From Parcubacteria group bacterium GW2011_GWA1_56_13 (GTDB lineage Bacteria > Patescibacteriota > Minisyncoccia > Phycocordibacterales > Phycocordibacteraceae), in contig LCRY01000002.1 of assembly GCA_001004905.1 (NCBI GenBank), positions 378,129 through 442,128 on the forward strand: a DNA stretch of 64,000 nucleotides. The letters run 5' to 3'. Within the stretch, counting starts at the first letter, position 1. Each line of letters begins with the position of its first letter. Below are positions 20,727 to 49,684 of this stretch, piece by piece. The notes under the pieces are model-generated. The model saw only the letters and a program-made list of their open reading frames with translations, made no database searches and was not told where the DNA came from. The position numbers and the translations under genes are program-made.

Positions 20727-23114
20727 CTACACTATTTCACACGTCCCTCCTGCGCAGGCGAGTTCCTTCTTCATTTCCGTTTCGTCCTGACGCTCATATG
20801 CATAGAGTTTCGAATAATCGACTTTCGGGAAGCGCTTCATTCGGTCCTCGTAGTCCTCTTTCGTAATGGCCTCGTACGGAGCGAGGCGGTAGACGTGTTC
20901 GGACCGCGGAAGGAACGAAAGGCCGCCGATGATGTCCCAGTTCCTCTGGATCCAGTCAACAACACCGATCCATTCATCTTCGCTTACCGAGACGGTCGCT
21001 GACGGATTATGCTGGGTGTAATTGATTTTGACCTTTTTCCAATACTCGAGCTGATCAAGCGCCGTGAGGTCGTCCTTGAAACGCGCTTCTTTGGAATGGT
21101 CGGGAGCTTTGACCGGGAATTCGAGTACGTAGGTATTCGCCTCTTCCATGGACTGTCCGACTTCCGGGTACAGCGGCACTCCTTGGTCGCGCATCATTTT
21201 GAAGAGAGAATCGGTCGCGCTAATACGCACGCGGCGAATGTAATACGGCGCGTGGCGCGGATGGATGCCCGACGCGCAGTTGAAGGTCTGCGAGACAGTG
21301 CCCGAGGGCTTGACCGCCGTTACCGCCATCGATCGCTCGATGCCGAAGCGCTTCGCGTACGTCGCGTTCGTCTTGTCCGCCATGTCGCGGACCTTGCGCA
21401 TCACCTCCGCCTGGCGCGCGACCGGCGAGTCCCACTGCCCCGTTATCGAGACGCCGAGAAGCCGTTCCGCGGCGCAATGTTCCGTCCATTCCTTTGATAT
21501 GTAGCTGAATTTTGTCAGCGTCGATTGGTATGTACCGAGAATCGCGGCGAGGCGGGCTTTTCGGATGAGCGATGCTTCCGTGTCACCGGCGCGCGCGATG
21601 ACCTCGGAGAGATTGCAGAACTGTTTCGACTGGAGAATGATCTCGGCGCAGGGATTCGTGCCGATTGGGCCGTGCACGACGCCGTCGTCGCCGATGAAGC
21701 CGACTTTCCTAAAATAATCCACACGGCGCTTCGGAAGCGTTACCGCGAGCGAGCCGCGGTTGAAGATGCCGCGCTCTCCCGCGCCACTCTTCATAAGCGC
21801 GACCCATTCATCCATAAGCTGGGCATTCGTCGGCTGGGTTTCGTAGACCGCGGAGTTATTCGCGACCGAGCGGTGAGGATCGGTCATGTAAAATTGGCCC
21901 TTCTTGGCGTCGCGCATCTCGACATCGTCGAGGTCGGAGAGTGAGATCATCGCGGTACGGCGCACGCCGCCGGCGACCACGCATTCGCCGATCTTACAGA
22001 TAATGTCGTGCGCATCAATGGCGCGCAGACGCCGTCCTTGGCGCTTCAGTATCCTCTCGCGGGCAAACGCGAGGAGAGATTTAAGCGGTTCCGGACCGGA
22101 CGCCTTGCCGCCCATCGTCTTCAGCCGCGCGCCTGCGGGACGGATGCCTGAAAAATCGAAGGTGATGTCTTTTCCGGAATACCAGGTCTTGAGACCGAGC
22201 GTGAGCGCGTCGCACCATCCCTCTTTCGAGTCCGGAATGACATACGTCGGCAACATTTTCCCCGACTGCTTCATGATCTGCGGGAGCTGTTCTATATTTT
22301 GGCTCTCTACAGCGAACCCGACGCCGCATCCCTGCATGGAGAGATACATTATCTCCGCGAAGTCCTCGAGCTTCACGGGCGCCGTGAACGTGCAATTGTA
22401 GGCGCACGTGTTACAGCGACGAGCCGCTTCCCCGGCGAACTGCATGAGGCGCATTGATGGCATCACTTCCTGTTTCAAAATACCCATGCGCACTTCGGCA
22501 TACTCTTTTTCGGTGAGCTTGTCGCCAAGATTCTCGCGCATGAAGCTGACGTAGCGGTCAACCGTCTCTATCCACGTTTCGCGACGCCCTTCTTCCGGTA
22601 TCCATTTCGCGTATGTGCGCAAATATACGAATTCACCGAGCGCGTTGCCTTCAAAATATTTTTTACTCTCTTCCGAAAGCTTTTTTACATGCGCCGGCAC
22701 TTCCACATGCGCCGCGCGCAACTGTGCGCGCTTGTCGCGGTAGAGAATATACGCCTTCGCCGTCTTCACGTAATCATTCAGGATGAGATATTTCTCCACC
22801 GAGTCCTGCGTGCCTTCAACTGTGGGGAGAAAACTCCTGTACCGCTTCGAAAATCGCGCGAGTTCGCCCACGACCTGGTGCGCGATGAGATTCGCATCGT
22901 CCTGACTGCCCTCTCCTGCCGCAGCCATTGCCTTCCACACGGCGGCGGCGATCTTATCGAAATCGAATGGGACCAATCGCCCGTCCCGCTTCTCGATTTG
23001 CGGGATTATTTCTCGATACCGGCGTGTTTCTTTGGAAACCGGAGGCACCGCGACCTCTGCAACCGGAACAACCGGCACTTTTACACGGACGGAATCTTTG
23101 GCGACTTTGGACAT
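20727..23114 (-). CDS. ribonucleotide reductase, class II-like (adenosylcobalamin-dependent) with N-terminal ATP-cone
   Basis: ATP-cone IEKRDGRLVPFDFDKI, large RNR barrel, C-terminal Cys pair CAGGTCEIV. No glycyl-radical motif. Confidence 0.6.
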   Translation of the reverse strand: MSKVAKDSVRVKVPVVPVAEVAVPPVSKETRRYREIIPQIEKRDGRLVPFDFDKIAAAVWKAMAAAGEGSQDDANLIAHQVVGELARFSKRYRSFLPTVEGTQDSVEKYLILNDYVKTAKAYILYRDKRAQLRAAHVEVPAHVKKLSEESKKYFEGNALGEFVYLRTYAKWIPEEGRRETWIETVDRYVSFMRENLGDKLTEKEYAEVRMGILKQEVMPSMRLMQFAGEAARRCNTCAYNCTFTAPVKLEDFAEIMYLSMQGCGVGFAVESQNIEQLPQIMKQSGKMLPTYVIPDSKEGWCDALTLGLKTWYSGKDITFDFSGIRPAGARLKTMGGKASGPEPLKSLLAFARERILKRQGRRLRAIDAHDIICKIGECVVAGGVRRTAMISLSDLDDVEMRDAKKGQFYMTDPHRSVANNSAVYETQPTNAQLMDEWVALMKSGAGERGIFNRGSLAVTLPKRRVDYFRKVGFIGDDGVVHGPIGTNPCAEIILQSKQFCNLSEVIARAGDTEASLIRKARLAAILGTYQSTLTKFSYISKEWTEHCAAERLLGVSITGQWDSPVARQAEVMRKVRDMADKTNATYAKRFGIERSMAVTAVKPSGTVSQTFNCASGIHPRHAPYYIRRVRISATDSLFKMMRDQGVPLYPEVGQSMEEANTYVLEFPVKAPDHSKEARFKDDLTALDQLEYWKKVKINYTQHNPSATVSVSEDEWIGVVDWIQRNWDIIGGLSFLPRSEHVYRLAPYEAITKEDYEDRMKRFPKVDYSKLYAYERQDETEMKKELACAGGTCEIV

Positions 23115-23201: not shown

Positions 23202-23660
23202 TTATTTTGAAACGCCCGGTGGGATTTTCAATAGGAGCAAAGTACCCGTCGCGATGGAGTAGGCCTCTGCGAAGCCGGAAGCGGTTTCAAGGACATAGCG
23301 CGCGGGGACCGCAGGATAAAAGACATTTGGGTAGGAAGACGTCGCGACGTGGGAGGCGATAGAGACGACTTGTCCTTGAGCATTGAGCCAGAAGATGTCT
23401 ATGGGCACGAGCATATCCTTCATCCAAAAGCCGTATAAACCGTCGCTTGGAAAAACGAAGAGCATGCCGTAATCACCTGGTATGTTATTTCGCCCGGCAA
23501 GGCCTCTCTCCTGCTCCGCTTCCGTTGTCGCATACTCAACCCTCAAGGACACGCCACCAAATTCTCCGGTTGCGGGCTGTCGTACGAGGCCTGTCCTATA
23601 GAAAGAGAAGGTTGCCACGCCGGCGATTACTACGAAAATACCGAAACCGAGACGTTTCAT
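23202..23660 (-). CDS. DUF192-family secreted/periplasmic protein
   Basis: ATG 23660 (MKRLGFGIFVV... signal/TM) abuts the tRNA-Ser 3' end. The ORF track start 23720 runs through the tRNA. Confidence 0.5.
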   Translation of the reverse strand: MKRLGFGIFVVIAGVATFSFYRTGLVRQPATGEFGGVSLRVEYATTEAEQERGLAGRNNIPGDYGMLFVFPSDGLYGFWMKDMLVPIDIFWLNAQGQVVSIASHVATSSYPNVFYPAVPARYVLETASGFAEAYSIATGTLLLLKIPPGVSK

Positions 23661-23661
23661 T

Positions 23662-23752
23662 TGGGCGGAGAGGGCGAGATTCGAACTCGCGGTGGGGTTT
23701 CCCCCACGCATGCTTTCCAAGCATGTCCTTTAGACCACTCAGGCACCTCTCC
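23662..23752 (-). tRNA. tRNA-Ser(GGA), long variable arm, CCA encoded
   Basis: RC: ggagagg tgcctgagtggtctaaagg, anticodon stem/loop catgc-ttGGAaa-gcatg, extra arm, T-arm gcgagttcgaatctcgc, cctctcc gcca. Confidence 0.85.
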
Positions 23753-23799: not shown

Positions 23800-25233
23800 T
23801 TATTGCTCGAGTTCGGCATCGAGCTCGCGGTTGAGCACGTGCTCGGATTCGCTCAGCAGTTTTTGCAAGCGGTTCGCGAGCCGCTCTTCCTCGACCGTGA
23901 GATTCCGTTTGGATTTCAGATCTTCGAGCGCCCTGATCTCGGACGTGATGGAACTACGCAATTCGTTAAATTGCCGATGGACGAGGATGTGCATGCGGTC
24001 TTCCTTGTTCACGACGCGGCGACGGAATGTATGGAACCGATGCCAGAGATACCACGCGACGGCAGAGAGCATGGCGAGTGCGGCGAGCGCGAGCAGGATA
24101 AGCGCGAGGTAGTTCGCGATGAGCCACGCAAGTGCGCCCCATGACGGTGTTTCCGCGCCGCGCTGTCCAGTGGAAGTGAATTGCTGACTTGCGGCGACCG
24201 AATTTCCGGCTTTGTCGTACACCGTGACCGAAAGCGTGTGCGTTCCCGCATCTCCTGCGGGTAGCGCGTACACGTCACCCCCTTCGGATGCGCTTACGGT
24301 CGTATCGGCGCCGTCGACGGACAGGACGTAGTGGTCGATGCCGGAAAGCGCGTCGGTCGCCGCAAATTCGACGGCGATGGTCGACGTCGCGGTCGCCGCC
24401 CCGTTCGGGAACGTGATGACGAGCGGGTCAGGCGGCTCCGTGTCGATCTGTATGCGGAATGTGGCGACCTGCCCCCAGCCGTCCGCCCCCTTCTCGCGCA
24501 CATGGAAATACCAAATGCCGTCGCCGAGCTGAAGCTCCTTGTGTGAAATGGGCTCGTCATAGAGGACGCCCGGCGTGCCGTCGGCATTCGTATCGTAGCC
24601 AAGACGTACCGCGGAGACGCCCTGCGCATTCGTCCAGTCGAGCACGACGTTCGAGCGGCTGTACCACTTCGTTTGATCGGGGTGTGTTGAGGAGGTAATG
24701 CGCGCGAGAAGCGGTGACTTTTCGACCGTCGGAGCGGGTACAGGTGCCGCGGAGGTGCTGATGGTAACGGTGGAGGGGTTCGCTCCGGTCAGTATGTTCG
24801 TACCGTTACCATCGTTCGCCAGGACCGCCGATGAGGTGAAATAAACGGTCGCCGTCCCTTCTTTTTTGGCCAAAAAGCGGATGGAGAAAACGGTGCCGGT
24901 GCCGGCAAAGCCGGGATTCGGGACAACGCCACTCCATTGCACGGAACCGGCGAGGTTGGAAAACGTCGGTTCCTGCACCCAGAGCGACAGCACCGAATTC
25001 GCCTTCGAGACGGAGGCGATGGAAAGAAGGTTTGTGGGGAAAGAGACGGTGCCCGAGATCGCGTTCAGTGCCTGATCGACGCTCGCGACGGTGACGGAAA
25101 CAGTGACCTGCTGTCCGGCGGCGACCGAGACGCTCGCGGGAACGATATTGAGCGACGCGGCGTGCGCCGCCGGCCCGGAGATGAGCAGCGCAACAATAGA
25201 GATGCCTATACGCAAACGTATCGATGCCAGCAT
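23800..25233 (-). CDS. cohesin-domain surface protein with C-terminal TM anchor and coiled coil
   Basis: Signal peptide, then LNIVPASVSVAAGQQVTVSVTV cohesin-like beta-sandwich start, SGIDHY motif, TM LAWLIANYLALILLALAALAML, charged helical tail. Confidence 0.5.
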   Translation of the reverse strand: MLASIRLRIGISIVALLISGPAAHAASLNIVPASVSVAAGQQVTVSVTVASVDQALNAISGTVSFPTNLLSIASVSKANSVLSLWVQEPTFSNLAGSVQWSGVVPNPGFAGTGTVFSIRFLAKKEGTATVYFTSSAVLANDGNGTNILTGANPSTVTISTSAAPVPAPTVEKSPLLARITSSTHPDQTKWYSRSNVVLDWTNAQGVSAVRLGYDTNADGTPGVLYDEPISHKELQLGDGIWYFHVREKGADGWGQVATFRIQIDTEPPDPLVITFPNGAATATSTIAVEFAATDALSGIDHYVLSVDGADTTVSASEGGDVYALPAGDAGTHTLSVTVYDKAGNSVAASQQFTSTGQRGAETPSWGALAWLIANYLALILLALAALAMLSAVAWYLWHRFHTFRRRVVNKEDRMHILVHRQFNELRSSITSEIRALEDLKSKRNLTVEEERLANRLQKLLSESEHVLNRELDAELEQ

Positions 25234-25248
25234 ATATTATATATGGGC

Positions 25249-26109
25249 TTAGAAAGTCCTTCGACGGGCCCGACCGATATACCAGAACCCCGCCAACACC
25301 ACTAGGATACCCCAAACAGGCCATTCCCGGGGACGAAGCAAGTTCGTGCGGTGGACAACGCTTATGCGCGCGTTCCCCGCCCGGTCGACGGCTTTTACGG
25401 ACACACCGCTTGTAAGATACTGGTCGCGGATGAGGAAGGGGCTTTCCGCGCGCTCCCATGAGGACGGCCAGGGCAAGCGGGTTTCCGCGACTTCATAATG
25501 GTCAATGCCGGAACCCTTGTCGACGGCGGAGAAGACGACGTACGACAGCCCGCCAAAGGTCTCCTGGTCGCTTCCGAGCGACGCGATAAACGGTTCCGGC
25601 GGAAAAGTGTCCACCGGTTCGGTGTACGTACTCGTTGCATTCGCGGCAACAGTAAGCAGGAGCGGCGGCGCGGTCGCCTGCTCGTTCGTCCCCTCTCCGT
25701 CGTTTTGGAGCACGCGTATGTCCGCCAGTACAAGGCGCGTGTCTCCGATGGCGGCGGTATTGAATATCACGCTGAAGAGTTTTTTCGAGTCGCCAGAGAA
25801 TCCGCCGGGAGTGGCGCCTGCGAACGCGACGGTCCCGTTGTCGAGAGTCGGGTGTGTTATCCACATGCTTATAATCGAGTTCCCGTCGTCGACGGCGACA
25901 GGGGCAAGTAGGTCCGACGGGAATCGAAGCGTACCGGAGAACGCGTTTACTGGCGTGTCGCTTCGTATCGACACGGTTATTTCAACGAGCTTGCCGACGC
26001 CCGGATGCGTCGGATCGGCGGAAAGCGACAGTGTCGCGGCCACCGCGGCAAGCGGTAGGGCAAGGAGGGCGAACGGAACGATGGTATACATCAATTTCTT
26101 CATATTCAC
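25249..26109 (-). CDS. cohesin-domain surface protein (paralog of 23800..25233) with C-terminal TM anchor
   Basis: Signal peptide MNMKKLMYTIVPFALLALPLAAVA, VGKLVEITVSIRS cohesin-like start, SGIDHY motif, C-terminal TM. Confidence 0.5.
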   Translation of the reverse strand: MNMKKLMYTIVPFALLALPLAAVAATLSLSADPTHPGVGKLVEITVSIRSDTPVNAFSGTLRFPSDLLAPVAVDDGNSIISMWITHPTLDNGTVAFAGATPGGFSGDSKKLFSVIFNTAAIGDTRLVLADIRVLQNDGEGTNEQATAPPLLLTVAANATSTYTEPVDTFPPEPFIASLGSDQETFGGLSYVVFSAVDKGSGIDHYEVAETRLPWPSSWERAESPFLIRDQYLTSGVSVKAVDRAGNARISVVHRTNLLRPREWPVWGILVVLAGFWYIGRARRRTF

Positions 26110-27419
26110 TATCCGGTCCAGTGGGACACGAGGATTGAAACATCGCGCAGGTCGACGGCTCCGTCGCCGTTCAGATCCGCCTTAAACCCGGCACCCGAGA
26201 GCGGCCGCCGATACCAATAGAGCATCATTGAGAAATCGATAAGGTTCACGCGACCGTTGTTATTCAGGTCGCCGATTAGTTTTTGCTGTTTCAATTTGGA
26301 AATATTTTCGTCCCCGACGAGAAAGCTAACCGATGCTCCGGAACTGCTTATTTCGTTCACGAACACCGACTTTGCCTGGGCAAGGTGGCTGCCGAGGTCG
26401 AGGACGGAACTGTCGAGATTGAAGAGATAGGCGCCGACGCCGTCCGTGGGCGTTTTAAAGAAGAGGCCGGCGTCGGAATGGACGGCGATGGTGACGGCCG
26501 AACCCGGATACGACTGGCCGAAAATGGCGATGTTGTCTCCCTGCTTCACCTCGCTTTTGTCAACATCAATGGTCGGCGCGATGAATATGCCGCCGACGGT
26601 CGTCGTATTGCCGGACGTCACCGCGGTCGGGAATGAGACCATGCTCGACCGGTTCCCCGCAGTGTCTTCGCTATAGAGCGAAAATATGTAGTCACCGGTC
26701 GAAAGTCCCGAGATCATGACCTGGAAATTCGCCTTGCTGTCTGCGGTAGTGATGGCAGCTACCTGCGCATCCTTAAGCACCGTCACACTGCTTCCCGGAT
26801 ACGCCCGACCGGAAAGCACTACCGACCCTCCGCCCACCGTCGTGATGCTTCCGCCTCCGCCTCCTCCCCCGCCGCTTGAAGCGGGCGTCGCCGACACCTG
26901 CGTCGAGGTCGCGATGACGTTCCCGACCCCGTCAAGAACGCGTACGATGAAATAGTACACGGTGCCGTTCGTAAGGCCCGTTATGGTACTTGAGAGAGAG
27001 CTTGTGGGAGACGTGTACGCATACGGACCGCCGGATACCGCCGCTTCCCCCACCGTGTAGTTCGTCGGGTTCCAGCCGAGGAACCCTTGCGATGCCGTCC
27101 AGGAAAGAGCGACTTGCGCGTTGCCGACGGTTGCGCTCACGACGGGCGTGGTCGCATACGGGAACGCGAAAAAGCCAGCGGTTTCGGTAAACGACGCGGA
27201 TGAGCTGGTGCCTACCGCCGTTCCGGATATCTCGCCGTACAACTTGAAGCTCGCCGATGCGCCGTAACCGCCGGCGCTCATGACGGGATTGAGTGATCGG
27301 TAGTTGGCGGAGGTGAATTCGTCCGCGGACGCGCTTCCTGCGGCGATGAAAAGAGCGATACCGAGAACCCCGAGCCACGGAAAGAGATTGCGCCGGGTTG
27401 GGAAAGAGCCGAAACTCAT
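26109..27419 (-). CDS. secreted FN3-domain protein with C-terminal type I dockerin
   Basis: Signal peptide, poly-Gly linker, two dockerin Ca-binding repeats DLNNNGRVNLIDFSMML and DLNGDGAVDLRDVSILV at the C-terminus. Confidence 0.55.
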   Translation of the reverse strand: MSFGSFPTRRNLFPWLGVLGIALFIAAGSASADEFTSANYRSLNPVMSAGGYGASASFKLYGEISGTAVGTSSSASFTETAGFFAFPYATTPVVSATVGNAQVALSWTASQGFLGWNPTNYTVGEAAVSGGPYAYTSPTSSLSSTITGLTNGTVYYFIVRVLDGVGNVIATSTQVSATPASSGGGGGGGGSITTVGGGSVVLSGRAYPGSSVTVLKDAQVAAITTADSKANFQVMISGLSTGDYIFSLYSEDTAGNRSSMVSFPTAVTSGNTTTVGGIFIAPTIDVDKSEVKQGDNIAIFGQSYPGSAVTIAVHSDAGLFFKTPTDGVGAYLFNLDSSVLDLGSHLAQAKSVFVNEISSSGASVSFLVGDENISKLKQQKLIGDLNNNGRVNLIDFSMMLYWYRRPLSGAGFKADLNGDGAVDLRDVSILVSHWTG

Positions 27420-27423
27420 GAAG

Positions 27424-28608
27424 CTATGGTGTCGTGTTGGACGCCGTATCTATTGTCATGGACGAGATGTCGGTGGTTTCAGATGTTGTCACGGCCGGGT
27501 CCACGACCGTGACGGTGCGCGAGGCACTCGTGGTGTTTCCCGCCGCATCAGTGGCGGAGTAAGTCAGGGTATAGAGCCCTGCGACAGCAGTATCGACCGT
27601 GCCCGATACAGTTATATGTGCCGTGAGGTCGTCGTCCACGTTGTCGGCGGCGGTCGCGCCGGGGTCGGTCCAGGTATCGCCTTTGTTGAGTTGCATCGCG
27701 GCATCGCCGTTTAGGGTCACGATTGGCGGCGTGCCGTCGGGTGATGAACTCGTCGAACCATCGCCCGAGGACACGGTGGTCGTTGCGGTTTCGGGTGGCG
27801 TGGAGGATGCTGTCGTGCTCGTAGAAGGCGTCGAGGTCGCGATCGTTTCCCCTCCGGTTCCCGATGAGGTGGTCGTAGTCGCCATTTCCTCCTGCGAGGG
27901 TCCCGGTGAAGACGCCGCTGTTGACGCTTGTGTCGGTTGCCTTTGCGTTGTCGTGTCCGTTGTTTGCGTGGTCTGCGCGACCTGCGCAGGTCGTTCCGGA
28001 TCGATGATAGGAGCGACCGGTGCCCCGACGTTCGACGTGTCCCCCGCGGCCGCCGCGACGGCGGCGGTTTCCGGCACAACCGGCGTGTATCCTTCGATAG
28101 TTCCATTCCTCGCATTCAGCATCCTTCCCACGAGACCCGAGTATTCCACGGCGACGACCTTTCCCGACTCCCCTTTTCCTTGTTCCAGTTTCTGCACCCG
28201 CTTCAGGTATGTTAATTCGTCTTTCACGTTATCACTCAATTCTTTGGTCACATGGAGGCCGAGATCCTTCCCTTCGAGACTCGCCTTGCTCACGGTCAGG
28301 ATTTTTTCGACGAACAGCGTCCGCCAAACACTGTCTTCGACCGCGAGCGTGCGGTAGGAATACGCTACGTAGTAATTCTTCTCATCGTCGGTGACGGCGT
28401 TGATGCGCAGGCCGAAATCGAAATTATCCAGATTGGCGGTGATGATGACGTGATTGTCGACTGATACCACCACCTCCTTGCTTGAGTACACAGCATCGCG
28501 CACTTGCGGACTCGCGGCATACGCGGCGCCGGAGCCGAGAAAGAGGACTCCGAGCGCTACCGTGAAGGCATTGTTGTATTTGATGAACCGAAGAACACGC
28601 TCCAGCAT
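27424..28608 (-). CDS. secreted protein with Thr/Ser-rich linker and C-terminal Ig-like (DUF5011-type) domain
   Basis: Signal peptide, low-complexity TTQTTDTTTQ linker, C-terminal LTAHITVSGTVDTAVAGLYTLTYSATDAAGNTTSASRTVTV. Confidence 0.45.
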   Translation of the reverse strand: MLERVLRFIKYNNAFTVALGVLFLGSGAAYAASPQVRDAVYSSKEVVVSVDNHVIITANLDNFDFGLRINAVTDDEKNYYVAYSYRTLAVEDSVWRTLFVEKILTVSKASLEGKDLGLHVTKELSDNVKDELTYLKRVQKLEQGKGESGKVVAVEYSGLVGRMLNARNGTIEGYTPVVPETAAVAAAAGDTSNVGAPVAPIIDPERPAQVAQTTQTTDTTTQRQPTQASTAASSPGPSQEEMATTTTSSGTGGETIATSTPSTSTTASSTPPETATTTVSSGDGSTSSSPDGTPPIVTLNGDAAMQLNKGDTWTDPGATAADNVDDDLTAHITVSGTVDTAVAGLYTLTYSATDAAGNTTSASRTVTVVDPAVTTSETTDISSMTIDTASNTTP

Positions 28609-28653: not shown

Positions 28654-31377
28654 CTAGCCGTTCAAATTGATTCCGTTGACCCTCTTCACCGAGTCGCTAG
28701 CGAGGCCGTTCAGTGTTTTCACCGAGGTTTCGTCGAGGCCGTTAAACGTGCTGATGTCGGAAGTCGGTATCGAAGGGCTTACCGACGCGGATTCTGAACT
28801 CGAAGGCGAAAATGAGGCGGAAGGGGACAAGCTTGGGGAGAGCGACGCGGAGGGCGAGCTTGACGCACTCGGGGATGGCGATGGAGAAATGGATGAGCTT
28901 GGCGAGAGAGAGGCCGATGGCGACTGGCTCGGGGATTCGGAAGCGGAGGGAGAGACAGACGGGCTCGGGGAGGCCGATGGCGACTGGCTCGGGGATTCAG
29001 AGGCAGAGGGAGAGAGCGAAGCGGAGGGAGACAGTGATGGCGAAACCGATGATGAGGGAGAGAGCGAGGCGGAAGGCGAAAGAGAGGGCGAAGCGGAACT
29101 CGAGGGAGAGATGGATGCGCTCGGAGATATCGAGGGACTTTCAGATGCGGAAGGCGAAAGCGAGGCGGATGGGCTAAGCGACGGCGAAACTGACGAGCTC
29201 GGTGAAAGCGACGCGCTCGGGGAAAGCGACGGACTTTCTGACGCCGAAGGCGAAAGTGAGGGAGAGACAGACGGGCTCGGGGAGGCCGAGGGCGACTGGC
29301 TCGGGGATTCAGAACTTGAAGGCGAGAGCGAAGCTGAGGGGGAAAGGCTCGGAGATTCGGAACTTGAGGGCGATAACGAAGCGGAGGGAGAGAGCGAAGG
29401 AGAAGCCGAGGCGGAGGGAGAGATTGAGGCGGAGGGAGAGATTGAGGAGGATTCAGAGGCAGAGGGAGAGAGAGACGCCGACGGCGAGAGTGAAGGACTT
29501 TCAGACGTGGATGGCGAGAGCGAGGCGGAGGGAGAGATTGAGGGCGATTCGGATGCCGAAGGCGACTGGCTCGGGGATTCAGAAGCGGAGGGAGAGAGCG
29601 ATGCCGATGGTGAGAGCGACGGGGAGATGGATGAGCTTGGCGAGAGTGAAGCCGAGGGAGAGAACGATGGCGACTCAGACGCTGAGGGCGAGAGTGAAGC
29701 TGAGGGCGAGAGCGACGGAGAAACGGAAGAACTCGGCGAGAGCGAGGCGCTGGGAGAGAGGGACGGCGATTCAGAAGTTGAGGGTGAGAGCGAGGCGGAA
29801 GGTGAGAATGACGGGGACTCGGATGCGGATGGAGAGAGTGAGGCGGATGGGCTGAGCGATGGCGATTCAGAAGTTGAGGGTGAGAGCGAGGCTGACGGAG
29901 ATTGACTCGGCGATTCGGAGGCGGATGGGCTCAGGGATGCAGACGGAGAGAGCGAGGGGGAAACAGAGGAACTTGGCGAGAGCGAGGATGACGGAGAAAG
30001 CGAGGGCGATTCGGATGCCGAGGGTGAAAGAGATGCAGAGGGAGAGAGCGAGGGTGATTCGGAGGCGGATGGGCTCAACGATGCCGAGGGTGACAGAGAG
30101 GGAGAAGCCGATGAGCTTGGCGAGAGCGAGGCGCTCGGAGATAACGATGGTGATTCAGAAGCCGAGGGCGACAACGACGCAGACGGGCTTAAGGACGGTG
30201 AAACCGACGAACTTGGCGAGAGCGAGGCTGACGGAGATTGACTCGGCGATTCGGAGGCGGATGGGCTCAGGGATGCAGACGGAGAGAGCGAAGGTGATTC
30301 GGAAGCGGATGGGCTCAACGATGCCGAGGGTGACAGAGAGGGAGAAGCCGATGAGCTTGGTGAGAGCGAGGATGAAGGAGAGAGGGATGGAGATATCGAA
30401 GAGGAAGGCGACAATGAAGCTGATGGGGAGAAAGACGGACTTTCAGAAGTCGATGGGGATAATGATGCTGAGGGAGAGAGCGAAGCGGATGGGGAAAGGG
30501 AGGGAGAAACGGAAGAGCTTTGCGCCGCTTGCGATGGCGAAACGGAAGCCGAAGGCGAAAGCGATGGGGATTCCGATGTCGAGGGGCTAAGCGAAGCTGA
30601 TGGGGAGAAGGACGGACTTTCAGAAGTCGATGGGGATAATGATGCTGAGGGAGAGAGTGAGGGTGATTCGGATGTAGACGGGCTAAGCGATGCTGAGGGA
30701 GAGAGTGAGGGTGATTCGGATGTAGACGGGCTAAGCGATGCAGACGGAGAGAGCGAGGGTGATTCGGATGACGAGGGAGAGAGAGACGGTGACTCCGATG
30801 GAGACTCTGAGGGCGATTGAGAGGAAGACGGCGAGAGGCTCGGTGATTCGGAAGGTGATTCGGAAGGTGATTCGGAAGGGCTTACCGAGGAAGACGGCGT
30901 CGGCGGCGTGAAGTCAACCGTGCACGTAACGAAATCGATGGAAAAAGTGACCGCGTCGGTATCGTTCCCCCGGATGCTCCGCAACCGGGCCCTGACGTTA
31001 TTGGCGGTTCTCAGGTCAGCGAGCGTTACGCCCGAGGTGACTTGATGTTCCAGGAGCGTGTCTACTGTCTTCTCCGTCGCGTCGCTCTGTTCCGAACCAA
31101 CTGCCGAGGTGCCGATGAACACCTGTATCGCCTGCGTGGCGATCGACATGTTGGTACTGACCTTGTATTGGAGGGAAACCGTAACCGAATTGATCGTTGA
31201 GCTGTCGGGGATGAGCGCGGTGTCAAACGCGGGGAATCCGAAATATGCCGAGATTTCGGCGTTTTTGCCGGGTGCGGCGGTCGCGTACTGAGTATTGTCG
31301 CCATCGTAGGCCAGCTGGGGGTTCGTGTATCCCGTCGTGATGGCTGTATGGGCATTGGCGTTCTGTGTGACAGCCAT
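28654..31377 (-). CDS. 907-aa Ser/Pro tandem-repeat protein (globular N-terminal ~165 aa, ~700 aa of SPSxSxSPS repeats, NGL-repeat C-terminus)
   Basis: Single uninterrupted minus-strand ORF through 2.7 kb. Plus-strand frames are broken by stops. Co-directional with the flanking genes. Confidence 0.6.
28800..30900. repeat. degenerate ~18/48-bp tandem coding repeats (Ser/Pro-rich region)
   Basis: Repeated ggcgagagcgaggcggagggagag... units encoding ([16 protein letters not shown])n on the minus strand. Confidence 0.8.
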
Positions 31378-31380
31378 AAC

Positions 31381-31836
31381 CTATCGCATGATTTTATTCC
31401 ACTCCTCTTCCGTCCAATTATTCAAAAAGTCCCTCTCCCCCTTCACCGAACCGCGGTAATTGATGCTGTGATGTTGCTTCTTCCCCACGCGCTTGCACTC
31501 GCTCCACGCTTTTTTCACATCGAGAACATACTCCCACGCACTGATGGCATGAACCAGGTCAAAGCTGCCGTCTGCGAACGGCAGCGTTTCCACCGAGGCC
31601 TTCAGTACGTATCCTTTGGCGCAGGTATGTTCGAGCGCATAATCGGATACTTCTATGCCCCACGCGTCAAAGCCGCGCTCGCGTAATAGTTTGACCAGAT
31701 AGCCGCATCCGGTGCCGATGTCCAAAATTTTGCATACGCCATATTTTTTCTCCAGCCAGTCGGCGACCGCTTCATAGAACGCATGCCTATGGATAGTTCC
31801 CCAGAGGTCTTCGTAGTATTTCCGATCAAAAATCAT
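31381..31836 (-). CDS. class I SAM-dependent methyltransferase
   Basis: GAGGGG SD before ATG 31836 (MIFDRKYYEDLWG). ILDIGTGCGYLV motif I. The stop lies 3 nt before the start of the repeat protein. Confidence 0.55.
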   Translation of the reverse strand: MIFDRKYYEDLWGTIHRHAFYEAVADWLEKKYGVCKILDIGTGCGYLVKLLRERGFDAWGIEVSDYALEHTCAKGYVLKASVETLPFADGSFDLVHAISAWEYVLDVKKAWSECKRVGKKQHHSINYRGSVKGERDFLNNWTEEEWNKIMR

Positions 31837-31970
31837 AGGCCCCTCATACGTAGATAGTACTCCATACTCCCCCTCTTCTGCTTTCCCAAATTTGGCGCCA
31901 CGACTTGCGGCGACAGGTAGCACGGTATCTCTTTTTAAGAGCCGGTCTCGGTGTGGAGCGCCACTGTCCT

Positions 31971-33722
31971 TTACGTCGCCCCCTGAAGGTCGAGTAGTTT
32001 GCGCACGTTGTCCCATCCGGGAATAGTGTCGACAGTCGCTTCCTTCCAGAAGGCCGGCTTGCGGCGGAACTGGTCCTGGCTCCAGCGCGCGCGGGTCAGG
32101 TTTTTGCCGTGCTTGATGTCAATCGAGGGCGCGGCGGACTGATACGTCTCGAAGCCGTACCAGTGTTCCCATTTGATGCGGCCGTGGGTCATCGGCTCGA
32201 AGCCAATGCGGTAAGAGAAGCCCTCCTTCTCGACAAGCGCCACCCGCTCCCGGAAATGATTTAGGAGTGCTCGCCGACAGGCGACGAGGCCCGACAAGGG
32301 GCTCACGTTGTACTGGATGGCGAATCCGTCCGAGGCGCGCAGGAACCAGTAGTTGCTGTCGTAGTAAAAGACGTCCTCGCGCGGCGGCACGAAGTCGAAG
32401 TGCGAAGGGTGGTAGAGCACGTCGTGTTCGGCGAGGAAGACGACGTCGGTGCCGAGCGTCTCGAGGCCGACGAGTATCTGCTTGAACAGCGTGATGTAGC
32501 TTCGCTTGAGCGGGAGCACGACATTCCTGCCGAACGCGGTCGGCTTGAGCGAGACGGAAACGAGCGGCAACCGTTTGCGCCGCGCGATTTTTTCGAGCTG
32601 GCGCTGGCAAACGCGCTGAATCTTTTCGTCGAGCTCGTTGTCAGTGTAGTAAAGAATGCCCATGCTTGGCACGCGCTTCGGGTCCCGGGGTTCCGAGGGA
32701 GCCGGCACGGCTTCGGTCGGCGCCTGCGGCTCCGGGAGCGGCTCGACATCTTCGGCCCGCGCCGCGCGCTCGTTCTGGAGCGGCCACGCCTTGAGCTTTG
32801 CGAACGCCTCCTCGCTCCATCCCGGTACTGGCCAGAATTTCTCGAGAAGCCACGAGAGTGGGCGCACCTGCTTCTCCCACTTATTGTCGAAAAAGAGCTC
32901 GCGCGCCGTCTTCTTCGCGGCCTGCACCTTGCTCCCCGGGTTCTCGTAAGGGAAGCCGAAGTCGCCGCCCTGTGTCCTGAACATATGCGCATACCACGTC
33001 TGGTGGTTCACAAGTACCCTGCCCCCCGAGAGCCACGTCTTGCAGGCCACCTCGATGCCCTGTGAGCCCCACGAGCCGAACGTCTCGTCGCTTATGCCGA
33101 GTTCCCAGTATTTGTCGCGGGTCAGCATGAAGCAGGAACCTTGAATGGACATCGACTCCGTGAGGCCGGTCGCAAGCGCCTTCTTATATTCAGGGCGGCG
33201 CCTGAAATCCCTGAAGTACTGAAAGTGTGGTTCCTGGTCGAAGCAGTAGGAGTCGCTCTGCGGATTCGTCTTCGGTATCCAGACCACGTCCTTCTCGGCC
33301 GGCTTGCCGCACTCCTTACAGGGCCCGGAGGGGCTCTGGTACCGGACGTGCCCGTCCGGGCACACCCAGTTGAACGCGTGGAGATTGCGCATCACTGGCA
33401 CCATCGTCACGTCGTCGCCGACTTCTTTGAACGCCGCGAGCATCTTGATGTCGAATCCTTGGTCGAACGCGCAGTGCGCATCGCACTTCATCACGTACTT
33501 CGCCTCCGAAAGCCGCGCCGCCTGGTTGGTCGCCGCGCGCTGGCCCTTCGCCTCAGGGTTGCGGATGATCTTGAGCCGCGGGTCTTCCGGCAGGTCCGCC
33601 GCGTAGCCGTCGAGGACCGCGATAACCTCCGTGTCCCCTTCCCGGTGGCTCAAAATGTCCTCGATGGTCCGTGTGAGGAATTCTTCGTTGCGAGCGGGAA
33701 TGAGTATCGAGAGGTCTGCCAT
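31971..33722 (-). CDS. family 2 glycosyltransferase fused to a second C-terminal domain
   Basis: SILIPARNEE...VIAVLDG GT-A N-terminus (DxD region CDAHC). ~300-aa extra C-terminal domain. Confidence 0.6.
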   Translation of the reverse strand: MADLSILIPARNEEFLTRTIEDILSHREGDTEVIAVLDGYAADLPEDPRLKIIRNPEAKGQRAATNQAARLSEAKYVMKCDAHCAFDQGFDIKMLAAFKEVGDDVTMVPVMRNLHAFNWVCPDGHVRYQSPSGPCKECGKPAEKDVVWIPKTNPQSDSYCFDQEPHFQYFRDFRRRPEYKKALATGLTESMSIQGSCFMLTRDKYWELGISDETFGSWGSQGIEVACKTWLSGGRVLVNHQTWYAHMFRTQGGDFGFPYENPGSKVQAAKKTARELFFDNKWEKQVRPLSWLLEKFWPVPGWSEEAFAKLKAWPLQNERAARAEDVEPLPEPQAPTEAVPAPSEPRDPKRVPSMGILYYTDNELDEKIQRVCQRQLEKIARRKRLPLVSVSLKPTAFGRNVVLPLKRSYITLFKQILVGLETLGTDVVFLAEHDVLYHPSHFDFVPPREDVFYYDSNYWFLRASDGFAIQYNVSPLSGLVACRRALLNHFRERVALVEKEGFSYRIGFEPMTHGRIKWEHWYGFETYQSAAPSIDIKHGKNLTRARWSQDQFRRKPAFWKEATVDTIPGWDNVRKLLDLQGAT

Positions 33723-49210: not shown

Positions 49211-49613
49211 GGGGGTGACCGGCTTTGACGGTCTGTACCTTGAAATGCGTGCGACGCAGTGCACTCCCGCTCACCACTGTAAACTGGCGGGAAACAAACT
49301 TGCCAAGAACACTCTTGCAAGCGCGAAGCAGTCGCCTTACTTCGGTAAGGTCGGCGATATCGCGTTCGCCTACGCGACGGCTCGCGGCTAACGCCCGTTC
49401 ATCCTCCCGGGTTTTCGCAGCCGGAGGCATGGGCGGAATTATCTGCGGAATCGGTCCTTCGTTCTCCCGAACTGAGGATCTAAACAAGGGATCGGGCAGG
49501 AATGGTTTCGCCGGCGTTCCTCGCATCCTGCCTTAGACACGAACGTTGGCTATGCGTCGTAGAAGCGCTTTCATAGACGGATTCGGACCGGGGTCCAATT
49601 CCCCGCACCTCCA
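49211..49613 (+). ncRNA. ssrA: tmRNA (SsrA), one-piece
   Basis: 5' GGGGGUGACCGGCUUUGACGG, 3' tRNA-like domain GGACCGGGGUCCAAUUCCCCG CACCUCC A. Candidate tag ORF ends ...AFAYATARG-TAA at 49389-49391. TGgTATTCT -10-like element at 49193. Confidence 0.8.
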
Positions 49614-49684
49614 CAAAATAACGAGTCCTGAAAGGACGACTATATTTTGTGAGAGTACTGAGTTCTGTCCGCAGAACGAACGTG

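Follow-up and report, generated by a model that had tools for sequence, protein, structure and literature searches.

Among the described systems closest to this locus are the type I cellulosomal cohesin-dockerin pairs, such as CipA Coh2-Xyn10B Doc of C. thermocellum (1ohz) and those of C. cellulolyticum (2vn5) and C. acetobutylicum (6kgc), which have a duplicated F-hand dockerin at the extreme C terminus and D or N at dockerin loop positions 1, 3, 5, and 12. Single-cohesin anchoring scaffoldins (OlpA/OlpC of C. thermocellum, 3ul4 and 4dh2; ScaE of R. flavefaciens, 2zf9) are fixed to the wall, by SLH in OlpA/OlpC and by a sortase LPXTG signal in ScaE, and capture enzymes or scaffoldins. Two further examples lie outside plant cell wall degradation, namely, the cohesin of Archaeoglobus fulgidus (2xdh) and the Coh-FN3 and Doc toxin complexes of C. 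perfringens GH84C/GH33 (2w1n, 2vo8, 2ozn); the C. perfringens modules are carried on secreted glycoside hydrolases and join enzymes to each other. Finally, rod adhesins such as Salmonella SiiE (2yn3/2yn5), Aureispira GhpA (e.g., 9flw), and the Ig-like part of Enterococcus PrgB (8beg) string Ig or FN3 domains in tandem like beads; each is one giant polypeptide, which either its own secretion system or a sortase anchors to the cell.

Here, we describe three adjacent genes, C, B, and A, of an ultra-small, noncellulolytic Parcubacterium, which probably form a noncellulosomal cohesin-dockerin surface-display cassette conserved across Parcubacteria (Paceibacteria) and related Patescibacteria. C shares with the type I cellulosomal pairs both the duplicated C-terminal dockerin and its loop residues, and the two near-symmetric helices of this module resemble those of dual-binding-mode dockerins. 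In contrast to these pairs, to which sequence identity is 11 to 19%, the cassette has no enzymes and no CBM, relies on single-cohesin proteins with no multicohesin scaffoldin, and anchors its cohesin proteins by a C-terminal transmembrane (TM) helix, not by SLH or sortase. It differs from OlpA/OlpC and ScaE by its membrane-helix anchor, by a cytoplasmic tail on A, and by always having two paralogous anchors. The A. fulgidus and C. perfringens modules are likewise noncellulosomal in setting but are not organized as a conserved operon of one dockerin gene and two genes for membrane-anchored cohesins. The cassette has the tandem Ig/FN3 layout and predicted surface location of the rod adhesins, and structural searches retrieve SiiE, GhpA, and PrgB, among others, with A and SiiE with C as well; however, its rod is a separate small protein, which a dockerin would join noncovalently to the anchor. 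No published description of such a cassette from Parcubacteria or Patescibacteria was found in a literature search. A dockerin protein of Southlakia epibionticum, SEML1_0315, is reported to be essential (PMC10633639).

Parcubacteria rank with the most abundant bacteria that have yet to be cultured. Those relatives that have been cultivated live in attachment to other cells, but to our knowledge, the molecules that form the surface and establish this contact are largely unknown. The cassette is a testable candidate for such a role, with hundreds of species, modules of well-understood binding chemistry, and an exchangeable outward part, and it would extend cohesin-dockerin biology from enzyme scaffolding to lineage-wide membrane-anchored display.

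Organization of the locus

Genes D, C, B, and A are four tightly packed minus-strand open reading frames (ORFs) in the 64-kb stretch of DNA that was analyzed (the window), and they lie where the first-pass annotation had placed them (Table 1). Neighboring genes are separated by 4 nucleotides (D/C), about 0 nucleotides (C/B), and 15 nucleotides (B/A), and spacing of no more than 15 nucleotides supports an operon; two in-frame TAA stops stand between B and A. Within the window, HMM searches located a dockerin in C only and cohesins in A and B only. No pilin, sortase, or usher gene is present within the operon. A promoter and terminator scan was uninformative, since its counts did not exceed those of shuffled sequence. 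The first-pass annotation had read the products as two cohesin anchors, a dockerin/FN3 protein, and a DUF5011-type Ig protein, all secreted. Its quoted motifs are all present (VTVSVTV in A, VEITVSIRS in B, SGIDHY in both, the dockerin repeats and poly-Gly in C), HMM and fold tests together support the domain assignments, and all four proteins have signal-peptide-like N termini.

Table 1. Coordinates of the genes and their modules in the window
Feature	Position	Strand	Extent	Description
Gene A	23800..25233	-	477 aa	Long cohesin anchor
TM helix and cytoplasmic helical tail of A	23803..24141	-	aa 365-395 (helix), aa 396-477 (tail)	
Stalk of A	24166..24702	-	aa 178-264, aa 266-356	Middle β-sandwich (motif STHPDQxxWY), then Ig-like domain
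Cohesin module of A	24754..25158	-	aa 26-160	
Gene B	25249..26109	-	286 aa	Short cohesin anchor
Cohesin module of B	25675..26040	-	aa ~24-145	
Gene C	26109..27419	-	436 aa	Secreted rod protein
Dockerin module of C	26112..26282	-	aa 380-436	Two F-hand repeats
Ig-like β-sandwich pair of C	26295..26837	-	aa 195-375	Big_6 and a second Ig
FN3 domain of C	26886..27152	-	aa 90-178	
Conserved N-terminal segment of mature C	27156..27323	-	aa 33-88	
Gene D	27424..28608	-	394 aa	Accessory neighbor

Cohesin anchors A and B

A consists of a signal peptide, a cohesin, a conserved middle β-sandwich, an Ig-like domain bearing the SGIDHY motif, a TM helix, and a cytoplasmic tail. B, its shorter paralogue (BLASTP E = 3e-20; hhalign to the A family, 100%, E = 3e-51), runs from signal peptide through cohesin and SGIDHY-bearing Ig-like domain to a C-terminal membrane anchor and a very short RARRRTF tail. 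The C-terminal anchoring claimed for both proteins agrees with the TM helix of A (KD 2.53) and with the 17-residue hydrophobic stretch of B, which is followed by RARRR.

The Pfam scan proposed for the cohesins succeeded only in part: A scores 23.5 bits against PF00963 (E = 6.8e-5), 0.6 bit below the cutoff of 24.1, and B itself has no Pfam match. The same profile is matched at E ≤ 0.01 by 19 of 50 A homologues (best, 1.5e-7) and 9 of 57 B homologues (best, 3.2e-7). B is also recognized by a local A-family cohesin HMM (E = 2e-28), and the profile of its family, which comprises 727 clusters at 50% identity (E ≤ 1e-30), matches the R. flavefaciens cohesin 5aoz (5aoz_A; E = 0.0012). PDB sequence searches with A, whether by single sequence or by profile, found no cohesin, so that a fold comparison was needed. 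The modeled A module has the fold that characterizes cohesins, a nine-stranded flattened β-sandwich (jelly roll) of about 140 residues, and the top Foldseek match of A is 2w1n, in which a cohesin is followed by FN3; judged from the model, the domain has a bona fide cohesin fold and is not a generic Ig domain.

The stalk of A is modeled by AF2 with pLDDT values of 90 to 97. Its Ig-like domain matches Big_13 weakly, and Big_13 is found in 31 of 50 family members; the middle β-sandwich has no Pfam match. Toward the C terminus, AF2 places helices at residues 365 to 440 and 447 to 476. The tail of about 80 residues contains a conserved KSKRxLTxEEE motif, with F422, E448, and E449 invariant, and a tail HMM matches most A homologues.

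The dockerin rod protein C

C, which has at least 809 homologues in Patescibacteria, is composed of a signal peptide, an N-terminal β-prone segment, an FN3 domain, a poly-Gly linker, two Ig-like domains, and a C-terminal dockerin. The two dockerin repeats that had been singled out, DLNNNGRVNLIDF and DLNGDGAVDLRDV, are both found, and here the expected Pfam match was obtained: PF00404 (Dockerin_1) covers residues 383 to 430 with 33.7 bits against a cutoff of 22.9. Calcium would be coordinated by D384-N386-N388-D395 in repeat 1 and D415-N417-D419-D426 in repeat 2, in agreement with the type I pattern; D384, N386, D395, and D426 are invariant among 49 homologues, and the protein ends in a conserved WTG. 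Dockerins in the PDB are matched at E = 3e-4 (single sequence) and 9e-5 (profile), and the AF2 model of the module has three helices (393 to 401, 409 to 414, and 424 to 432; pLDDT, 81 to 92).

In the rod itself, Big_6 scores 30.2 bits against a Pfam cutoff of 27.6, and the Ig pair is modeled with pLDDT values of 83 to 97. The FN3 domain, weakly matched by Pfam fn3, also has FN3 matches in the PDB and forms a β-sandwich in AF2, and Foldseek with the C model retrieves FN3 tandems. The N-terminal segment comprises three S-x-x-[FY]-x-[LV]-like units, which are β-prone and conserved in the family; it has no Pfam match, and its AF2 confidence is low (pLDDT, about 40 to 44). No catalytic domain or CBM was detected in C by Pfam at E ≤ 1.

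Conservation of the cassette and exchange of the carrier

We sampled 86 loci, 74 of which keep their upstream DNA and form the basis of the linkage counts. In all 74, an ORF ending in a dockerin stands directly before B and then A on the same strand, with a median ORF gap of about 0, and the window fits this order (dockerin-ending ORF, coh-Ig-TM, coh-mid-Ig-TM-tail, all on one strand). At least 570 species-representative genomes of Patescibacteria encode a relative of A, and the cassette is also present in “Ca. Microsyncoccus” PMX.50 (locus L079). C-B-A is not peculiar to one genome; the three genes make up a cassette that is conserved class-wide in Parcubacteria (Paceibacteria) and in related Patescibacteria.

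The body of the dockerin carrier, in contrast to this fixed order, is variable: it is of the cnt-cig-doc type in 20 loci, of the cig-doc type in 42, and unrelated in 12, with the Ig pair preceding the dockerin in 62 of the 74. Carriers in other lineages range from 280 to 1,530 residues, and the dockerin and both cohesins are kept. Ten variant carriers have only MG2 or FN3 β-sandwiches beside a dockerin scoring 22.0 to 47.4 bits in Pfam; nine reach the cutoff, and the tenth (L049) has 22.0 against 22.9. Searches of these ten at E ≤ 0.001 revealed no catalytic domain or CBM.

These data bear on whether the cassette works as a cellulosome in miniature, scaffolding enzymes that degrade polysaccharides, as its cellulosomal, type I kind of modules and the name given to C in GenBank (“Cellulose 1,4-beta-cellobiosidase-like protein”) would suggest. 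That name derives from dockerin similarity to CelS only and is misleading, as C is not a cellobiosidase. The searches of A, B, C, D, and the ten variant carriers turned up neither a glycoside hydrolase nor a CBM nor any other catalytic domain, and C and these carriers include no dockerin-bearing CAZyme; A and B, with a single cohesin each, provide neither a multienzyme scaffoldin nor a CBM-bearing multicohesin one. Fused B-A ORFs with two cohesins, at least 17 among the 150 matches listed, are also without a CBM; because they are possible gene-calling read-throughs, they were not used as Rosetta-stone evidence. On the basis of these proteins, we reject the enzyme-scaffold explanation as extremely improbable, and the cell-surface, noncellulolytic interpretation of the first-pass annotation is supported, the dockerin gene being linked to both cohesin genes in 74 of 74 loci.

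Another explanation is that the proteins are coexpressed in the envelope and do not bind each other, the A and B sandwiches being generic Ig-like adhesion or spacer modules and the C dockerin recognizing a wall polymer, a host glycan, or a cohesin encoded elsewhere. It would accommodate the subthreshold Pfam cohesin score of A and the missing one of B, the odd stoichiometry of two cohesins per dockerin, and the 64-kb scope of the cohesin and dockerin census on this contig of 455,725 bp; moreover, the survey of Peer et al. 2009 reportedly found cohesin and dockerin modules without known partners to be widespread outside cellulosomes. However, the A fold speaks against a generic Ig domain, and the dockerin gene stays linked to both cohesin genes without exception even though the remainder of the carrier changes freely, a pattern that would be difficult to account for if the dockerin were of no importance to A and B. 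Conservation is also highest in the dockerin and cohesin A, and their divergences track each other: in a mirror-tree comparison, dockerin divergence follows that of cohesin A (r = 0.57) and cohesin B (0.51) more closely than that of the C Ig pair (0.41) or the A middle domain (0.32), a modest signal that is confounded by shared phylogeny and differing rates and is suggestive; the Ig3 control was too saturated for use. We consider independent, nonbinding envelope proteins unlikely.

The N-terminal segment of C raises the further alternative that C is the subunit of a polymeric, pilus-like appendage, in which the segment, intrinsically unfolded, would complete an Ig domain of the next C in a donor-strand-like manner or bind a D-family protein, and A and B would hold the basal subunit only, through a cohesin-dockerin joint. 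Conservation, low pLDDT, and predicted strands, as seen in this segment, are typical of partner-induced folding; D-family genes adjoin only carriers that have it, and one locus (L033) encodes a stand-alone protein with the segment and no dockerin. It is present, however, in only 20 of the 74 dockerin carriers, and its absence from the other 54 excludes an indispensable role in the cassette; an incomplete Ig domain is not evident in the AF2 model of C, and the operon is devoid of pilin, sortase, and usher genes. Such an appendage is, in our view, very unlikely.

Neighboring genes

D was originally counted as the fourth member of the module; the linkage data uphold C, B, and A in this role but not D. 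Behind its signal peptide, D has a conserved N-terminal domain (residues 1 to 190), a Thr/Ser/Pro-rich linker (28 T and 18 S in 108 residues), and an Ig-like domain (residues 298 to 368) that matches PF16403 (Bact_surface_Ig-like, formerly DUF5011) over the full profile with 92.4 bits against 27. Its N-terminal family adjoins the cassette in 1 of the 74 loci. Only L006, L088, and L089 have a D-family gene immediately upstream of C, and the last two of these were found by searching with D itself and stand outside the 74; in another genome, the family is encoded 20 kb from the cassette. These counts rule out D as a core member, and it is an occasional neighbor. Gene E, which encodes an upstream Ser/Pro-repeat protein, was also rejected as a member: it has no signal peptide and no Pfam domain, and tblastn (E ≤ 1e-6) found no match in the 86 sampled loci.

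Proposed model of surface display

The C-B-A trio is most likely a plug-and-socket system that fixes a surface fiber to the cell. The signal peptides, the TM helix, and positive-inside residues suggest export of A and B by Sec and retention in the cytoplasmic membrane through their C-terminal helices, in type I topology. Each would present one type-I-like cohesin at the distal end of a stalk, made up of one Ig domain in B and two β-sandwiches in A. Secreted C would plug its C-terminal, Ca2+-binding dockerin into the cohesin of A and/or B, and the cell would thereby hold a tethered rod, some four domains in length (FN3, Ig, Ig), with the conserved N-terminal segment facing outward as the putative working tip. 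The model of this candidate tip is of low confidence, and most carriers (54 of 74) are without the segment. In other lineages, the rod is replaced by other β-sandwich carriers; exchange of the rod, with the dockerin and the two cohesins retained, argues that the cassette is a general-purpose anchor to which different surface fibers or adhesins can be fitted, plausibly used for contact with host cells or a substrate. Inside the cell, the conserved coiled tail of A may serve to gather the complex into clusters or to link it with a partner in the cytoplasm.

A bolder and tentative reading, possible but on balance doubtful, is that the trio serves Parcubacteria and ABY1 Patescibacteria as a core apparatus of the envelope, in which a pair of membrane cohesin sockets replaces sortase- or SLH-type anchoring of the principal host-touching surface fiber. 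If so, lineages would adjust their specificity for hosts or substrates by swapping the dockerin-tagged rod, the dockerin, being near-symmetric, could join A to B, and the cytoplasmic tail of A could relay or organize the contact site from inside. Each cassette encodes one dockerin and two cohesin proteins.

An operon-like gene group encoding cohesin and dockerin proteins

The window DNA is chromosomal and belongs to a CPR/Patescibacteria bacterium. The first-pass annotation had reported four consecutive ORFs for secreted proteins and quoted several motifs in them, and all of these are present. The genes, designated D, C, B, and A from upstream to downstream, are packed in an operon-like manner: 4 nt lie between the TAG of D and the ATG of C, the start of B directly abuts the TAG of C, and 15 nt with a second in-frame TAA separate the TAA of B from the ATG of A. 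Signal-peptide-like starts are found on all four products.

Coordinates of the gene group and of nearby features in the window
Feature	Position	Strand	Description
tmRNA	49211-49616	+	tag peptide AKQSPYFGKVGDIAFAYATARG
ORFs just upstream of E	31381-33722		methyltransferase-like and glycosyltransferase-like
E	28654-31377	-	907-aa Ser/Pro-repeat ORF, directly upstream of D
D	27424-28608	-	394-aa ORF
C	26109-27419	-	436-aa ORF
B	25249-26109	-	286-aa ORF
A	23800-25233	-	477-aa ORF
ORF downstream of cassette	23202-23720	-	172 aa
ORF downstream of cassette	20727-23114	-	795 aa

A and B had been proposed as paralogous cohesin proteins with C-terminal membrane anchors, and both assignments hold. A falls 0.6 bit under the Pfam Cohesin cut-off (E=6.8e-5), and 19 of 50 homologues match the same model; the HMM evidence is borderline in the window sequence and satisfactory in its relatives. 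The cohesin identity of A is settled by the predicted structure: the AF2 model, built from a 50-sequence alignment (pLDDT 87.6), adopts a cohesin fold with Foldseek TM scores of 0.71 to 0.77. B itself has no Pfam match; its homology to A (BLASTP E=3e-20; profile-profile E=3e-51) marks it clearly as a paralogue, nine of 57 members of its family match Pfam Cohesin, and the family profile matches Ruminococcus flavefaciens cohesins. The C-terminal TM helix of A is strong and leads, via basic residues, into a ~80-aa helical tail that is predicted to be cytoplasmic and has the conserved motif KSKRxLTxEEE. B lacks this tail and the middle β-sandwich domain of A, and ends in a 17-residue hydrophobic stretch followed by RARRRTF. 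A matches a hypothetical protein of Parcubacteria group bacterium GW2011_GWB1_57_6 at 100% identity and has more than 260 full-length homologues (40 to 63% identity), exclusively from Patescibacteria metagenomes; the B family comprises 727 clusters at 50% identity (E<=1e-30).

C was described as a dockerin/FN3 protein, in agreement with our searches. In Pfam, Dockerin_1 (33.7 bits against a cut-off of 22.9) and Big_6 (30.2 against 27.6) are exceeded, with a weak fn3 match; of the cohesin-dockerin domains for which a Pfam check had been suggested, only the dockerin thus clears its threshold. PDB sequence searches retrieve dockerins (6kg9, 2y3n_B, 1daq, 2mte, and 5nrm_B) and FN3 modules. The ligands of F-hand loops 1 (D384/N386/N388/D395) and 2 (D415/N417/D419/D426) occupy canonical positions, and D384, N386, D395, and D426 do not vary across homologues (n=49). 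In the AF2 model (pLDDT 78.5), the signal peptide is followed by an N-terminal segment that is conserved yet modelled with low confidence, then by an FN3 domain, a Gly linker, a pair of Ig-like sandwiches, and a dockerin of three helices; Foldseek returns only FN3/Ig tandems for its body. At least 809 homologues of C were found, the closest among the matches listed being from Candidatus Kaiserbacteria. C is named “Cellulose 1,4-beta-cellobiosidase-like protein” in GenBank, a name explained by dockerin similarity to CelS only; no glycoside hydrolase domain was found in C.

Conservation of a three-gene cassette

Module-wise local HMMs were scanned over 86 loci, of which 12 are cut at a contig edge and 74 keep DNA upstream of B. 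In all 74, an ORF ending in a dockerin (the carrier) immediately precedes B (cohesin-Ig) and then A (cohesin-middle domain-Ig-tail) on one strand. The carrier has the full architecture of C in 20 loci, lacks the N-terminal segment and FN3 in 42, and has an unrelated body of 282 to 1532 aa in 12. Pfam finds only MG2 or FN3 β-sandwiches plus the dockerin, and no enzymes, in ten of these variant carriers, nine of which reach the dockerin cut-off. The proposed four-protein module stands for C, B, and A, but D is only an occasional neighbour. On this comparative evidence, the core unit is a three-gene cassette that much of the Patescibacteria has kept and whose dockerin-tagged rod is exchangeable, which extends the first-pass annotation. 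The invariant dockerin and variable carrier are the putative signature of a modular plug-and-socket system.

Relatives of A occur in at least 570 genomes (one genome per species scanned). Most lineage-titled records belong to Patescibacteria groups (Kaiser-, Zambryski-, Wolfe-, Jorgensen-, Brenner-, Taylor-, Sung-, Harrison-, Colwell-, Vogel-, Campbell-, Portnoy-, Magasanik-, and Falkowbacteria). These groups also include Ca. Microsyncoccus archaeolyticus, an archaeal parasite kept in enrichment culture.

By local HMMs, the 64-kb window contains no dockerin other than that of C and no cohesins other than those of A and B. Conservation within the cassette is highest in the dockerin and in cohesin A. 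Among distance matrices from 51 loci, that of the dockerin correlates best with those of cohesin A (0.57) and cohesin B (0.51), and less with those of the Ig pair of C itself (0.41) or the middle domain of A (0.32), which fits co-evolution of dockerin and cohesin without proving it. That A, B, and C are co-expressed envelope proteins that do not interact appears unlikely.

B and A are fused in some database proteins and loci (cohesin-Ig-cohesin-middle domain-Ig-tail), and one locus has a fused C-B ORF (examples of fused ORFs include P0249, P0272, P0277, L069, and L008). These may be true fusions, which the topology would allow, or read-through artefacts of gene calling; in the window, two TAA stops keep B and A apart. 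An extra A-like paralogue (cohesin-middle domain-Ig) lies inside the cassette in L034, L038, and L088, which raises the number of cohesin proteins to three for each dockerin gene.

Predicted assembly at the cell surface

Read most simply, established cohesin-dockerin behavior and the anatomy described here suggest that C is probably tethered by its dockerin to the cohesins of A and/or B. As type I membrane proteins, A and B would hold their cohesins clear of the membrane on Ig-like stalks; the Ca2+-dependent dockerin of secreted C would dock onto one or both, leaving a β-sandwich rod anchored non-covalently on the cell surface. Assembly into a polymerising fibre is a rather improbable alternative. 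The non-cellulolytic context noted earlier is borne out, in that no enzyme or CBM was found in D, C, B, A, or ten variant carriers; this favors a structural or adhesive role over a cellulosome and makes an enzyme scaffold highly improbable. Two hallmarks of a cellulosome, enzymes that bear dockerins and a CBM-containing scaffoldin with several cohesins, were searched for in these proteins, and neither was found. The earlier interpretation as a surface assembly or host-attachment scaffold is essentially right, with a putative function; the cassette would gain interest if it proved to be the structure by which these episymbionts contact their hosts.

In function, the cassette comes closest to the anchoring proteins OlpA, OlpC, and ScaE, each with a single cohesin, and to the Coh-Doc pairs that C. 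perfringens and A. fulgidus have outside cellulosomes. Unlike these, it is anchored by TM helices, always has two paralogous cohesin proteins, includes a cytoplasmic tail, and carries a cargo made up only of β-sandwiches. Full-text literature searches found no paper describing a cohesin-dockerin cassette in Parcubacteria/Patescibacteria.

Neighboring genes

The C terminus of D is DUF5011-type and Ig-like as annotated (PF16403, formerly DUF5011; 92 bits). Residues 1 to 190 define a distinct Parcubacteria family, well conserved (55 to 65% identity) and without a Pfam model, whose members are ~290 aa long; it occurs in L006, L087, L088, and L089. It immediately precedes C in L006, L088, and L089, lies 20 kb from the cassette in another genome, and is absent from the upstream region of the remaining sampled loci; D is therefore, by gene order, an occasional neighbour outside the conserved unit. 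Whenever the family adjoins the cassette, the conserved N-terminal segment is present in the carrier. In the window genome, D has acquired a Thr-rich linker and the Ig-like domain.

E has an N-terminal domain of ~160 aa, with neither signal peptide nor Pfam match, followed by ~700 aa of SPS[E/L/A]SPS-type repeats, in which 370 of 701 residues are Ser and 135 are Pro; the repeats cause the strong GC skew at 28 to 32 kb. Its only database matches are low-complexity ones to serine-rich/MSCRAMM models. Since methyltransferase-like and glycosyltransferase-like ORFs lie just upstream, E may be a glycosylated surface protein.

A tRNA-Ser gene lies downstream of A, and tRNAs, a tmRNA, and a ribonucleotide reductase are found nearby; the window holds eight tRNA genes at scattered positions. 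At positions equivalent to the 172-aa and 795-aa ORFs, the closest relative (L003) encodes a DUF192 protein and a class II (B12-type) ribonucleotide reductase, so by position the gene order around the cassette looks conserved among close relatives.

In Saccharibacteria, SEML1_0315 of Southlakia epibionticum is an Ig-rich envelope protein said to have a dockerin domain; it is essential by Tn-seq and flanked by M48-type protease and alpha/beta hydrolase gene types (SEML1_0313-0315; PMC10633639). Among our loci, L001 and L004 have an M48 (HtpX-like) protease gene 2 to 5 kb upstream of the cassette, and in L001 and L002 the gene after A encodes an alpha/beta hydrolase; these shared flanks may reflect distant synteny or coincidence.
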